Source: Escherichia coli
GTDB lineage: Bacteria; Pseudomonadota; Gammaproteobacteria; Enterobacterales; Enterobacteriaceae
Direction: 5' to 3' (one strand)
Assembly: GCF_003334315.1 (NCBI RefSeq)
Contig: NZ_QOWR01000008.1
DNA length: 64,000 bases
The notes under the pieces are model-generated. The model was not told the DNA's origin. It searched no databases and saw only the letters and a program-made list of their open reading frames with translations. Position numbers and translations under genes: made by a program. Each line of letters starts with the position of its first letter. The stretch's first letter is position 1. This document shows positions 410 to 52,397 of the stretch, piece by piece.

Positions 410-441
410 AAAAAAAGGCCCCTGTTGAAATTGCAGGGGCC
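410..441 (-). terminator. Rho-independent terminator downstream of cutC
   Basis: GC-rich hairpin ggcccctg/caggggcc at 417-441, followed on the minus strand by a U-run (plus-strand A-run 410-416). Confidence 0.7.
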
Positions 442-488
442 TGGTACGAGCAAGCATCATATTGGGCGACATGATGCAACGGTAAAAA

Positions 489-1244
<756 letters not shown>

Positions 1245-9016: not shown

Positions 9017-10470
<1,454 letters not shown>

Positions 10471-10472
10471 CG

Positions 10473-11333
10473 TTAATCCTTACTTAGCGCATACACCGTC
10501 TGACCACGCAGCGTGAAGCGGCGCTCAAGGTGGCTAAAGTTTTCAGAGTGACCCGCAAACAGCAATCCGTCGGGTTTAAGGAGCGGAACAAAGCGGCGCA
10601 AAATCTCCTGCTGGGTAGTTTGATCGAAGTAGATCATGACGTTACGACAGAAGATCGCATCAAACGGCCCCGGCACGGTGTACTGTTTCGCCAGTAGATT
10701 CAGCGGGGCAAAATCAACATAGTTCGCCAGCTCCTGACGCACGCGTACCAGCCCTTCATGCGGCCCCGTCCCTCGCATGAAATACCGTTGCAGTTGCTGC
10801 GGCGTCAGGTTTTTCAACTCTTCATGGCGATAGATACCGCTTCTGGCTTTTTCCAGCACTTCGGTGTCGATATCACTGGCAAACACTTTCCAGCGTCCGG
10901 GCGCGGTGCCCAATGTGTCAGCCAGCGTCATCGCAATGCTGTACGGCTCTTCGCCGGTCGAAGCCGCCGCGCTCCATACGCGATACTCGCCAGAACGGCG
11001 ACGTGCGTGATCCGCGAGCAGAGGGAAATGATGTGCCTCACGGAAAAATGCCGTCAGATTCGTGGTCAGCGAATTGATAAACGCCTGCCACTCACCGCTG
11101 TGCTGATTAGATTCCAGCAAGTTCAGATAATGACCGAAATCCGTCAGTCCCAGCGAACGCAAACGACGAACCAGTCGGTTGTAAACCATGTCGCGTTTAT
11201 GGTCAGCCAGAACGATCCCGGCTCGTTGATAGATCAATTGACTTATCCGCCGAAAATGCGCGTCGGAAAGCGCCAGGCGCTCGGTCATCTGTAACAATAA
11301 AGACGTTTGCCCACAGGGCAGAGATGAAGTCAT
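10473..11333 (-). CDS. cheR: Chemotaxis methyltransferase CheR
   Basis: 286-aa ORF matching recalled CheR. Confidence 0.95.
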
Positions 11334-11351
11334 AGCGCCTTCTCAATCACT

Positions 11352-12953
11352 TCAGGATACCACTGGCGCAATTTGTAACTGCACCGACTCATGTCGTGCT
11401 ACTTCATGTTCTTCAAGGGTAAATACCGCTACACGCGACGAAAGATGGTCGGCCTGATTCGCCAGTTGTTCCGTTGCCACCGCCGCTTCTTCTACCAGCG
11501 AGGCGTTCTGCTGAGTCACCTGATCCATCTGGCTGACAGCCTGTGCAACCTGCTCAATCCCCCGCTGTTGTTCTTCCGACGCAGAGGCAATTTCTCCCAT
11601 AATGTCGTTCACGCGGGTCACCGAACTGACAATATCGATCATGGTCGCGGCGGCGTTATTCACCAGTTTCGAACCCTGCTGGACACGATTGACTGACTCT
11701 TCGATCAGCCCTTTGATCTCTTTTGCTGCCTGCGCGCTACGGCTGGCAAGATTGCGCACTTCACCTGCCACTACCGCAAAACCACGCCCCTGCTCTCCGG
11801 CGCGAGCCGCTTCCACTGCCGCATTCAGGGCCAGAATATTGGTCTGGAAAGCAATTCCGTCGATAACGCTGATAATGTCGCCAATTTTTTGCGAGCTGGT
11901 GGCGATCTCCTGCATGGTGTGAGTCATGGTACTGACCTGAACACCGCCCGCCTGCGCCGTTGTCGCGGCATTTTTTGCCAGTTCCGACGCCTGTCGTGCG
12001 TTATCGGCGTTTTGCCCTACCGTGGCGGTTAATTGCTCCATACTGGCGGCCGTTTGTGCCAGCGATGCCGCCTGCTGTTCGGTACGACTTGAGAGATCGT
12101 TATTGCCTGCGACAATCTCCGCGATACCAATGTGCATCTCCTGGCTTCCCTTACGCACATCACTTACCGTCCCACGCAAAGCCTGCTGCATGGTCTTCAG
12201 ACTGGCAAAAATGGCGGTGATCTCATTACGACCATATACCGCAATCGGACGCGCCAGATTACCCGCAGCAATGCTGTCAAAATGGCTACCGATAATGGCC
12301 AGTGGTTGAACAATCATCTTGCGCGTCCACCACAGCGCACTGCTGATGTAGATCGCCGCAACAATAATCATGCTGATAAACACCAGTGCCGAAATCTGAT
12401 AGTTACGCTGGCTTTGCGAACTGGCGGCTTCCAGCACATGGTTGATCTCCAGCTGCCAGGCCTCAAAGTTAACGTCAAACGCATTCTGTGATCCCTGCAC
12501 CGGCGCAGTGAGGAAATCCGAAAGTTGATTACTTTCAAGCCAGGTCGCCTGATGTTCGAGATCGTTGTGCCAGCGGGCAAAACTTTTCTCCGTCTCTTTT
12601 TGCAATCCCCTGACGTGCTCGTTGCCCGCAGTCATCGCCATAAAACTTTTAAACAGCGTGGTGGATTGCGTCAGACTGGCGCGCGCCGTCGTCATCAACG
12701 TTTTAATGTCATCCGCCGGATAGCTAAGTGCCGTCAGAGTGCCCGCTTTGTTCAGCGCGGTACTGGCCTGTAACATTACCGCCCGAGTTTGCGCTAATGC
12801 CGCACGTTGCTGATTGCTCTGCTCGACCTGATTCAGTCGTTGCAAATCGTCGCGAAATGCCCAAAAAGACATGCCGTTACTGCCAATCTGCAAGATCCCG
12901 CAGAGAATCAAAATTAAAAACAGCGTGGTCGAAATTCGAATACGATTAAACAT
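11352..12953 (-). CDS. tap: Methyl-accepting chemotaxis protein IV (dipeptide/pyrimidine sensor) Tap
   Basis: ORF 11352-12956; 533-aa product from MFNRIRIST; MCP signalling domain. Confidence 0.93.
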   Translation of the reverse strand: MFNRIRISTTLFLILILCGILQIGSNGMSFWAFRDDLQRLNQVEQSNQQRAALAQTRAVMLQASTALNKAGTLTALSYPADDIKTLMTTARASLTQSTTLFKSFMAMTAGNEHVRGLQKETEKSFARWHNDLEHQATWLESNQLSDFLTAPVQGSQNAFDVNFEAWQLEINHVLEAASSQSQRNYQISALVFISMIIVAAIYISSALWWTRKMIVQPLAIIGSHFDSIAAGNLARPIAVYGRNEITAIFASLKTMQQALRGTVSDVRKGSQEMHIGIAEIVAGNNDLSSRTEQQAASLAQTAASMEQLTATVGQNADNARQASELAKNAATTAQAGGVQVSTMTHTMQEIATSSQKIGDIISVIDGIAFQTNILALNAAVEAARAGEQGRGFAVVAGEVRNLASRSAQAAKEIKGLIEESVNRVQQGSKLVNNAAATMIDIVSSVTRVNDIMGEIASASEEQQRGIEQVAQAVSQMDQVTQQNASLVEEAAVATEQLANQADHLSSRVAVFTLEEHEVARHESVQLQIAPVVS

Positions 12954-14691: not shown

Positions 14692-14718
14692 TTATCGGCA
14701 AGGAGGGGGGAAACTTTA
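14692..14718 (-). promoter_or_regulatory. Sigma-28 (FliA) class 3 promoter of the tar-tap-cheRBYZ operon
   Basis: Minus strand reads TAAAGTTT, 11-nt spacer, GCCGATAA: exact match to sigma-28 consensus, about 30 nt upstream of tar. Confidence 0.85.
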
Positions 14719-14748
14719 TTGCTGATGCCACCCGCCGCGAAATTGAAA

Positions 14749-14776
14749 TAAAAAACCCGATGCGCAGATCATCGGG
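14749..14776 (-). terminator. Rho-independent terminator downstream of cheW (end of motAB-cheAW operon)
   Basis: Hairpin cccgatg/catcggg (14756-14776) followed on the minus strand by a U-run. Confidence 0.7.
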
Positions 14777-14804
14777 TTCATTTCAATTGAGGAAATCGGG
14801 AGAA

Positions 14805-33009: not shown

Positions 33010-33096
33010 TGGTACCCGGAGCGGGACTTGAACCCGCACAGCGCGAACGCCGAGGGATTTTAAATCCCTTGTGTCTACCGATTCCACCATCCGGGC
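33010..33096 (-). tRNA. leuZ: tRNA-Leu (anticodon UAA)
   Basis: Minus strand reads GCCCGGATGGTGGAATCGGTAGACACAAGGGATTTAAAATCCC...GGGTACCA (87 nt) with encoded CCA. Confidence 0.95.
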
Positions 33097-33108
33097 TCGG
33101 GAAGAAAG

Positions 33109-33182
33109 TGGAGGCGCGTTCCGGAGTCGAACCGGACTAGACGGATTTGCAATCCGCTACATAACCGCTTTGTTAACGCGCC
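33109..33182 (-). tRNA. cysT: tRNA-Cys (anticodon GCA)
   Basis: Minus strand reads GGCGCGTTAACAAAGCGGTTATGTAGCGGATTGCAAATCCGTC...CTCCA (74 nt). Confidence 0.95.
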
Positions 33183-33236
33183 AAATTCTTCAGGCCTTTC
33201 AGCCAGACATCCGCTTGAGGCCGATGTCTTTTAAAC

Positions 33237-33312
<76 letters not shown>

Positions 33313-50700: not shown

Positions 50701-50806
50701 TCCCTCATTCCCGCTGTGGCCCACTGCGGGAACATCGTTGCCTCTGACACATAGATTTTACCCACCCCCTCTCCTATTCTTTTCAGTATGATCTCAGGAG
50801 GTTTCT

Positions 50807-51475
50807 ATGTGTGGACGCTTTGCCCAATCCCAAACGCGTGAAGATTACCTTGCGCTTCTCGCGGAAGATATTGAACGCGATATTCCCTACGATCCCGAAC
50901 CCATTGGCAGATACAACGTCGCGCCGGGAACCAAAGTTCTTCTGCTCAGTGAACGTGATGAACACCTTCATCTGGATCCGGTTTTCTGGGGATATGCTCC
51001 CGGATGGTGGGATAAACCGCCGCTGATTAACGCCCGCGTAGAAACTGCGGCCACCAGTCGTATGTTTAAACCGCTCTGGCAACATGGTCGGGCAATCTGT
51101 TTTGCCGATGGCTGGTTTGAGTGGAAAAAAGAAGGCGACAAAAAACAGCCTTATTTTATCTATCGCGCTGATGGACAACCTGTTTTTATGGCCGCGATAG
51201 GTAGCACACCGTTTGAGCGCGGTGACGAAGCCGAAGGATTTTTAATTGTCACTGCAGCAGCAGACCAGGGTCTGGTATATATTCATGACCGCCGCCCGCT
51301 GGTTCTGTCGCCAGAAGCTGCACAGGAATGGATGCGGCAAGAGATTGGCGGTAAAGAAGCATCAGAAATTGCTACCAACGGCTGTGTGCCAGCAAACCAG
51401 TTCACCTGGCACCCGGTATCGCGCGCGGTAGGTAATGTCAAAAACCAGGGCGCGGAGTTAATTCAACCTATCTGA
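50807..51475 (+). CDS. yedK: SOS-response-associated peptidase (abasic site processing protein) YedK
   Basis: 222-aa ORF beginning MCGRFAQ (catalytic Cys2); matches recalled YedK. Confidence 0.93.
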   Translation: MCGRFAQSQTREDYLALLAEDIERDIPYDPEPIGRYNVAPGTKVLLLSERDEHLHLDPVFWGYAPGWWDKPPLINARVETAATSRMFKPLWQHGRAICFADGWFEWKKEGDKKQPYFIYRADGQPVFMAAIGSTPFERGDEAEGFLIVTAAADQGLVYIHDRRPLVLSPEAAQEWMRQEIGGKEASEIATNGCVPANQFTWHPVSRAVGNVKNQGAELIQPI

Positions 51476-51868
51476 TAAGCCTGGAGATTATTGATCAACA
51501 ATACTGCGTCATAAGAAATCTCTATTAGACAAAGTAGACGCTCCTTCCACATGCGCCACAAGAAACCTCTATTCCAGTGACACAATTACGCCTGATTATT
51601 TCCCTAGCCCGGAATATGAATAAAAACATCAACAAAGATTAAATTATTCAAACGTTACTGTTGCGTCTGCGGTCGTAGCAACATCCGACGTGGTGATGAG
51701 TGTTAAAAGAGACACTCTGATGTTCAGAGGGGTTATCGCGTTTACGGATCGTGGATGGCAGAAAACTTTCAGGATCAGGTATCCATTTTAAACCAGAAAT
51801 AGGGTGAGTTTGCCCCATCCATGCCCCACGCGGGCAGATGGGATGTAATTACCAACAGGTTACAAAAC

Positions 51869-52183
51869 CTACACCTGCATGGACATCACTTCCTGATACG
51901 CCGCCACCAGCTTATTACGCACCTGAATCCCCATTTGCATAGAAACTGAGGCTTTTTGCATATCGGTCATCACATCGTTTAACGCCACGCCGGGTTCACC
52001 GAGGGTGAATTTTTCTGCCTGCGTGCGGGCGGCTGTTTGTGTATCGCTTATGCGATCGAGCGCGGCGTGCAGCTGCCCGGTAAAACTAATGGTCGGTTGT
52101 GGCAGTGATTCCTGTGCACGCGCACTCATCGCCGTAGCCTGTAACTGGCTGATAACCCCTTCAATCCCCTGTATCGCTGACAT
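51869..52183 (-). CDS. fliE: Flagellar hook-basal body protein FliE
   Basis: ORF 51869-52213; start moved to [15 protein letters not shown] (104 aa). Confidence 0.93.
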
Positions 52184-52397
52184 TTTCGTCTCCCGGATAA
52201 TTTCTGGTAGCAAAGCCTACCAGTAAGTCAATAAGACAAAGGCGCTAAATAGCAACAAAAAAACGGGTTTATTGGCGGATAGAAAAAAACGAAAGCACAA
52301 ATAATGGGAGCGTCAATTTTTCGAGTTTGCTGACCCGGGAGTGAGTCTTGTTCCACTTTGCCAATAACGCCGTCCATAATCAGCCACGAGGTGCGCG
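52184..52397. promoter_or_regulatory. Divergent fliE / fliF class 2 (FlhDC-dependent) promoter region
   Basis: Intergenic region between divergently oriented fliE and fliF; individual FlhDC boxes not resolved by eye. Confidence 0.6.

Follow-up and report, generated by a model that had tools for sequence, protein, structure and literature searches.

The yedK-fliE spacer of Escherichia coli as a probable decayed prophage scar at a phage attachment site overlapping the fliE 3' end

The spacer between yedK and fliE in the Escherichia coli DNA analysed here (a stretch of 64,000 nucleotides from contig NZ_QOWR01000008.1, hereafter the window) is very probably a decayed prophage scar in the most reduced of its common forms, located at the attB of lambdoid or P22-like phages that carry a tyrosine integrase of the type found in Escherichia phage IdasGreatGrand (PP925829.1). 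As read from sequence comparisons, it is a scar at an attB that would still be live. The spacer is a known kind of feature, since the annotation of K-12 already flags a prophage remnant at this locus, and our results make a modest addition, namely that the core is delimited to 20 bp at the 3' end of fliE and that no virgin site was found among the E. coli genomes surveyed.

The coordinates of the features discussed below are collected in Table 1. Both the open reading frames and the RefSeq annotation of near-identical genomes, which places the same genes at this interval, bear out the statement of an earlier note on this DNA that yedK and fliE are separated by a non-coding gap of 393 bp (51476-51868), inside which there is no convincing ORF. 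The GC content of the spacer is 43%, and that of its 51492-51712 portion 40%, as compared with 50.8% for the whole window. No Rfam family or tRNA was found within the spacer, and a scan of it for promoters and terminators rendered a single weak hairpin at 51715-51729, on the minus strand, which is at chance level. A palindrome that contains a GATC site (ATTATTGATCAACAAT, 51487-51502) straddles the position, 51491/51492, at which the haplotype families described below diverge. In the closest relative of the window, strain VTB97420v (NZ_CP178690.1, 100% identity), an IS1A copy is inserted within the yedK-spacer-fliE interval. Elsewhere the window bears ordinary E. coli content unrelated to this locus, including the MicL sRNA (410-717, minus strand), the C0465 RNA (14708-14785, plus strand) and a tRNA-Leu/Cys/Gly cluster (33010-33312, minus strand).

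Table 1. Position of the features identified in the yedK-fliE region of the window
Feature	Position	Strand	Basis or remark
yedK (SOS response-associated peptidase), 222 aa	50807..51475	+	ORF; same annotation in near-identical genomes
16 nt TAAGCCTGGAGATTAT, putative ancestral yedK-side arm of attB	51476..51491	.	Common to all haplotype families
K-12-family-specific DNA with both direct repeats and both indel junctions	51492..51606	.	Aligns to K-12 locus L003 ~1507-1549 and 2153-2219
Direct repeat copy 1, TGCGTCATAAGAAATCTCTATT	51505..51526	+	22 nt
Junction A, site of the 603-bp yedL block (GNAT acetyltransferase) in K-12 and 1,290 genomes	51534..51535	.	BLAST breakpoints
Direct repeat copy 2, TGCGCCACAAGAAACCTCTATT	51552..51573	+	Sole copy in the espR-only loci L007 and L012
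Junction B, site of the ~1.2-kb yedN block (espR-like LRR effector pseudogene) in K-12	51598..51607	.	BLAST, sequences
Spacer common to K-12, upstream of the recognisable integrase fragment	51607..51712	.	K-12 intG pseudogene annotation from ~51669
Integrase remnant (intG homologue)	51713..51850	+	blastx: 80% identity to a 434-aa phage tyrosine integrase over its residues 386-431; TAG in frame at 51800
Candidate arm-type integrase-binding repeat TTTGCCCCATCCATGCCCCAC	51809..51829	+	21-mer flanking the core on either side in attP of IdasGreatGrand
Phage P-arm CAACAGGTTACAAAAC, between integrase stop and core	51853..51868	.	Identical to IdasGreatGrand attP; absent from the Nissle distal junction
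att core CTACACCTGCATGGACATCA, fliE stop codon and its last 17 nt	51869..51888	.	All 20 positions shared with attP of IdasGreatGrand and with that of an IMG/VR contig
fliE (flagellar hook-basal body protein), 104 aa	51869..52183	-	ORF, ATG at 52183; RefSeq annotation of near-identical genomes

Over its right 40% the spacer matches the gene for the integrase of phage IdasGreatGrand, and what is left of that gene are its last ~46 codons, reading towards fliE. At the nucleotide level, 51705-51888 aligns to the 3' end of IdasGreatGrand int and the adjoining attP with 86% identity over 195 columns, so that the similarity extends past the stop codon, and the final 36 nt of the alignment (51853-51888) are identical to the phage at 36 of 36 positions. 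The orientation of the fragment and its adjacency to fliE reproduce the layout found in E. coli UTAK-1 and in the IdasGreatGrand attP. Between 51607 and 51712 no similarity to the IdasGreatGrand integrase was detectable, and the left 230 nt of the spacer found no DNA match in a phage collection of 50,697 records. In compact genomes, such as that represented by locus L001, PGAP marks an 'integrase, partial'; calls of this kind next to fliE are explained by the prophage scar.

Comparison with UTAK-1, with Nissle-type loci and with an IMG/VR contig that bears a 99.5% identical integrase and has the same right-hand core boundary divides the 36 identical nucleotides into a common core of 20 bp, shared by the phage attP and the bacterial site, and the phage P-arm at 51853-51868. 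The crossover would occur within this core, and can be placed no finer than that. Because the phage attP carries the same 20 bp, integration would rebuild an intact fliE, and it would set the integrase gene directly beside fliE, reading towards it. Motifs related to the 21-mer of Table 1 are present beside the distal core in Nissle and in a scar in Franconibacter, and they can be regarded, together with that 21-mer, as candidate arm-type integrase sites. A strict attP pattern matched no viral contig, and a looser one matched a single contig. The third-last codon of fliE, which encodes Ser and lies in the core, is TCC in the window as in the phage attP, and AGC in the K-12 counterpart of the core (L003 3701-3720). 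This two-step synonymous switch would most simply be accounted for by an exchange of the core with a phage copy.

The gene order in K-12 MG1655, yedK-yedL-yedN (pseudogene)-intG (pseudogene)-fliE, is as the earlier note had given it, with 2,210 bp between yedK and fliE and not an adjacency of ~400 bp; yedM no longer has a separate annotation. The note had also described the window as lacking intG, which is contradicted by the alignment. BLAST of window 50800-52200 against the K-12 locus (L003) rendered three collinear pieces, 50800-51534 (L003 815-1549), 51535-51601 (L003 2153-2219) and 51598-52200 (L003 3432-4032, K-12 2012431-2013031), and the third of them, with 94.7% identity, covers the whole K-12 intG pseudogene, so that intG has not been lost from the window. 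Nor is the K-12 surplus one island, as had been supposed: it consists of two separate blocks, yedL (GC content 46.8%) at junction A, where there is no microhomology, and yedN (33.7%) at junction B, which vary independently of each other. In other strains junction B holds an intact or degraded espR/DUF5503 gene, and all four combinations of presence and absence of the two blocks occur in E. coli: neither in the window, L001 and L002, yedL only in L004, espR/DUF5503 only in L007 and UTAK-1, and both in K-12 and L005, with a tandem duplication yedL-espR3-yedL'-espR4 in E. coli O55:H7 (L006). The integrase remnant is kept in all strains examined, whichever of the combinations they have, and yedL-yedN-intG does not behave as a single unit bounded by direct repeats. 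In O55:H7 DEC5B the region (L006 6000-12400) comprises yedL, espR3 split by an IS3-family element, a partial yedL, espR4, the integrase remnant and fliE.

The distribution of these forms was surveyed in 5,426 complete E. coli genomes. A query made of yedK, the spacer and fliE (window 50800-52200) matched in 5,380 of them, and an integrase-plus-core query in 5,160, in which, among the matches listed, only the last ~195 nt match. A full-length integrase of the IdasGreatGrand type was found in eight genomes, in six of which it abuts fliE. DNA of the K-12-family spacer is present in 2,695 genomes, yedL at junction A in 1,290 and the espR block adjoining repeat 2 in 1,181-1,490, and the compact form with both junctions closed is found in 1,014 (19%). 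The remaining genomes belong to a second family, with the order yedK-(nmpC-like porin or IS605)-ybcM-ybcL-emrE-int remnant-fliE, whose porin region matches lambdoid phages such as 434. The distal junction, in which the yedK flank is joined to a core copy, was detected in 444 genomes, the copy being identical at 19 of 20 positions, or at all 20 in five of them. The survey thus presents the window as the most eroded common state of the locus and not as an empty one.

It had been suggested in the earlier note that the window shows the unoccupied form of an integration hotspot. The hotspot stands, as do the absence of a prophage and of the yedL and yedN genes; what does not stand is the unoccupied state, since the integrase 3' end, the P-arm and the core have been kept, which is the structure of a prophage-host junction. 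That the window represents a virgin integration site, at which the yedL-yedN-intG segment of K-12 was inserted as one degraded element, would be in keeping with the lack of an intact gene between yedK and fliE in the window and with the 2.2 kb, including an integrase pseudogene, found there in K-12, but it is scarcely credible in view of the integrase remnant, the P-arm and the candidate arm-type repeat present in the window and of the independent variation of the two K-12 blocks, and the match of 51705-51868 to the integrase gene of a phage already refutes it. Moreover, at a virgin site the convergent yedK and fliE genes would have 16 nt between their stop codons, and not 393 bp, the predicted attB being made of GGAGATTAT, the core and CTTCCTG, in this order; in the window it is the integrase remnant and the P-arm that abut the core. 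The predicted 60-nt virgin junction was found in none of the 5,426 genomes (best coverage, 50 of 60 nt), and exact-pattern scans of metagenomes, which would miss diverged virgin sites, found none either.

A prophage flanked by core copies is found at the fliE end in E. coli UTAK-1, and a full integrase abuts fliE in the six genomes mentioned above. The UTAK-1 prophage is complete, P22-like and of ~38.7 kb, and the order is fliE, int, xis ... tailspike, an old partial integrase, an LRR (espR) gene and yedK. A 36-nt sequence that includes the core is present at both ends of the prophage (L012 605-640 and 39330-39365), and the distal core copy is followed by TATGACCATGTAT, which corresponds to the P' arm of the IdasGreatGrand attP. 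To judge from UTAK-1, in which the same kind of scar has gained a complete prophage, the attB at the fliE end would still be usable. The junctions to be expected in such a lysogen would be old int remnant-core-TATGACCATG on the yedK side and new int-core-CTTCCTG on the fliE side. Since the new prophage sits between the old scar and fliE, older debris would be pushed towards yedK, and from this order yedL, espR and the filler can be taken as probable leftovers of older integrated elements.

The left boundary of the scar emerges from the Nissle-type family, in which the 20-bp core stands directly after the 16-nt yedK flank and is followed by the lambdoid remnant with an nmpC-like porin, ybcM, ybcL and emrE. 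In Nissle 1917 and in L013 the flank TAAGCCTGGAGATTAT is followed by CTACACCTGGATGGACATCA, a 19/20 copy of 51869-51888, and then by unrelated DNA. The family that includes the window and K-12 is collinear with the Nissle family through 51491 and diverges from 51492. Because the two families diverge exactly where the distal core begins, 51492-51868 lies between two att junction positions, and all of it would be DNA of integrated elements. The window/K-12 family has no distal core copy, and its left boundary is identified as a core boundary only via the comparison with the Nissle family; a sequence considered as a degenerate core at the left junction of the K-12 family (TGATCAACAATACTGCGTCA) was rejected, as it matches at 5 of 20 positions. 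Over a 180-nt stretch that includes the core and the fliE 3' end, the integrase remnants of the window and of Nissle are only 86.7% identical, and the remnants found in E. coli fall into two identity classes with respect to the modern phage, which makes it probable, on the basis of these sequences, that more than one integration event was involved.

Two further observations concern this family. In L009 and L010 (~9660-11400) an IS200/IS605 element, with TnpB and a degraded TnpA, lies at or overlaps the yedK stop codon; with it yedK becomes one codon longer, and the element takes the place of the left att junction of the lambdoid remnant. The L013 contig, labelled as a 'Lachnospiraceae bacterium' MAG, is E. 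coli-like (yedF, yedK with 96% identity, the Nissle-type remnant and fliE) and is probably the result of contamination or mis-binning.

We propose that one or more ancient integrations filled an original gap of ~16 nt between the convergent yedK and fliE genes, and that later deletions would have taken away nearly everything, so that 377 bp (51492-51868) would be left in the window, consisting of ~220 bp of AT-rich filler together with the P-arm and the final ~46 codons of the integrase gene. K-12 would retain two more pieces of the same remnant, the 603 bp of yedL and the ~1.2 kb of yedN/espR, which were most likely lost from the window by two independent deletions, the direction of change being our interpretation. 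It is also possible, but rather unlikely, that the compact form is the older one within the K-12 family, and that yedL and espR/yedN were inserted later, the repeats having arisen by duplication upon arrival of the yedL segment. The two indels are clean, with fully kept flanks and with no microhomology at junction A, and espR-only genomes have one repeat copy, as would be expected before a duplication associated with yedL; in addition, neither YedL nor EspR adjoins yedK in 80 loci of other genera, and the GC content of the yedN block is low (33.7%). Against insertion, however, no transposase, inverted repeats or target duplications abut either block, the window has both repeats without having yedL, so that the repeats were not simply made by the arrival of yedL, and the right flank of the window is nearly identical to that of the espR-containing haplotype L007, which fits a loss of espR. 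Deletional decay is, besides, the general pattern for prophages.

The near-repeats of the spacer, which the earlier note had considered as possible remnants of, or targets for, site-specific recombination, are real, but their coordinates had been given 2 and 4 nt off, the 13-mers lying at 51514-51526 and 51561-51573. The 22-nt copies listed in Table 1 are identical at 19 positions, with a spacing of 47, and none of 2,000 dinucleotide shuffles reached 19/22, the maximum being 18. As candidate att cores they fail: they bear no similarity to the core CTACACCTGCATGGACATCA, which indicates that they are not the attachment sites of the integrase, and they bracket only the yedL indel site, whose endpoints fall outside the repeats, 8 nt past the end of copy 1 and 17 nt short of copy 2. 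A comparison of the window and 94 loci located the 22-nt repeat in E. coli loci of the K-12 family and in no others. In the window both copies are present and yedL is absent; in espR-only genomes there is one copy, intermediate in sequence, which could be either the product of a repeat-mediated deletion or an older allele.

That the repeats are the att-like recombination sites of a small site-specific yedL cassette is very unlikely. The repeat is non-random and, among the loci compared, confined to this one, its two copies lie on either side of the yedL indel, and there is also a form with one copy, all of which could be expected of such a cassette; yet the indel endpoints are not inside the repeats, recombination between the copies would not leave both of them in the window without yedL, the repeats are dissimilar to the integrase core, and no recombinase is associated with them. 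Only slightly less improbable are two further suggestions, that the 603-bp yedL segment is a small non-autonomous cassette mobilised by an unknown site-specific mechanism, or that the phage-derived DNA immediately downstream of fliE persists in every E. coli because it has been co-opted as a fliE 3' end or terminator. The yedL block shows neither inverted repeats nor an annotated transposase, and a transposon-type yedL block with an excision footprint (TAGAC-AAAG-TAGAC) was discarded because the single-repeat form does not fit it. A DNA search of the 50,697 phage records with K-12 yedL-yedN rendered no match.

Outside Escherichia, a scar of the same layout was found in Franconibacter pulveris (L085), with the order yedF-yedK-2.3 kb-integrase remnant-arm-like motif-fliE. 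At L085 7700-7990, a remnant of the integrase C-terminus is followed by the motif CTATGCCCCACCGATGCCCCAT and then by the core and fliE 3' end (CTAAACCTGCATGTTCATAA), a layout which implies that the fliE end has been used by this integrase family beyond Escherichia. The YedK homologues of other Enterobacteriaceae (L014-L092, e.g. L032, L033, L067 and L091, with 80-87% amino acid identity) are for the most part encoded away from yedF and fliE. Genomes often have two YedK copies, several of the homologues are found ~300 bp downstream of an integrase 3' fragment, and yedK-type SRAP genes outside E. coli look to be associated with phages or islands. In the YedK search of genome contigs no named representative of E. 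coli, E. albertii, E. fergusonii or Shigella was matched; the sole match with 'Escherichia' in its title was Escherichia sp. ESNIH1 (82% identity), and it is not at the yedK-fliE locus.

The interest of these results lies mainly in annotation and comparative genomics, in that the yedK-fliE interval can be described as a phage attachment site with its core at the fliE end, where prophage debris of some kind is present in every complete E. coli genome examined and of which the compact allele is simply the most eroded common state. As a practical use, if a modest one, the 20-bp core and the junctions expected from it allow the PCR typing of prophages at fliE. In addition, espR3, espR4 and yedL are often counted among virulence or accessory genes; they appear to have been left behind by this same decayed element. 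A full-text literature search on fliE, yedK or intG as a prophage, attB or integration site found no description of the locus, and EspR3 and EspR4 were found in lists of virulence genes only.

Among the known systems closest to the remnant in the window is the attP and integrase module of IdasGreatGrand and the UTAK-1 prophage, which belongs to the same integrase family (80% amino acid and 86% nucleotide identity). In contrast to them, the window keeps only the last ~46 codons of the gene, interrupted by a stop codon, lacks 11 nt directly past the place of the integrase stop codon, and has neither a P' arm nor a prophage. In Nissle 1917 and many further strains the interval between yedK and fliE is filled by the DLP12-like lambdoid remnant, which ends beside fliE in an integrase remnant of the kind found in the window, although this starts later than in the window (at the equivalent of 51732). 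The Nissle-type remnant is bounded by core copies and, unlike the scar in the window, it has 4.3 kb, intact genes and a preserved distal att junction. As to the K-12 intG pseudogene, for which the RefSeq note reads 'cryptic prophage PR-G', the window has the homologous DNA, including the intG fragment and the att core, without the adjacent yedL and yedN blocks and with the phage-type Ser codon in the core (TCC) instead of the AGC of K-12. A possible parallel from another gene is provided by e14, which integrates in the 3' end of icd, the phage supplying a replacement gene end. By analogy with e14 and icd, the core would overlap the last codons of the gene and attP would hold a synonymous copy of them, so that the gene would stay intact, but at fliE only 17 nt and the stop codon would be replaced.
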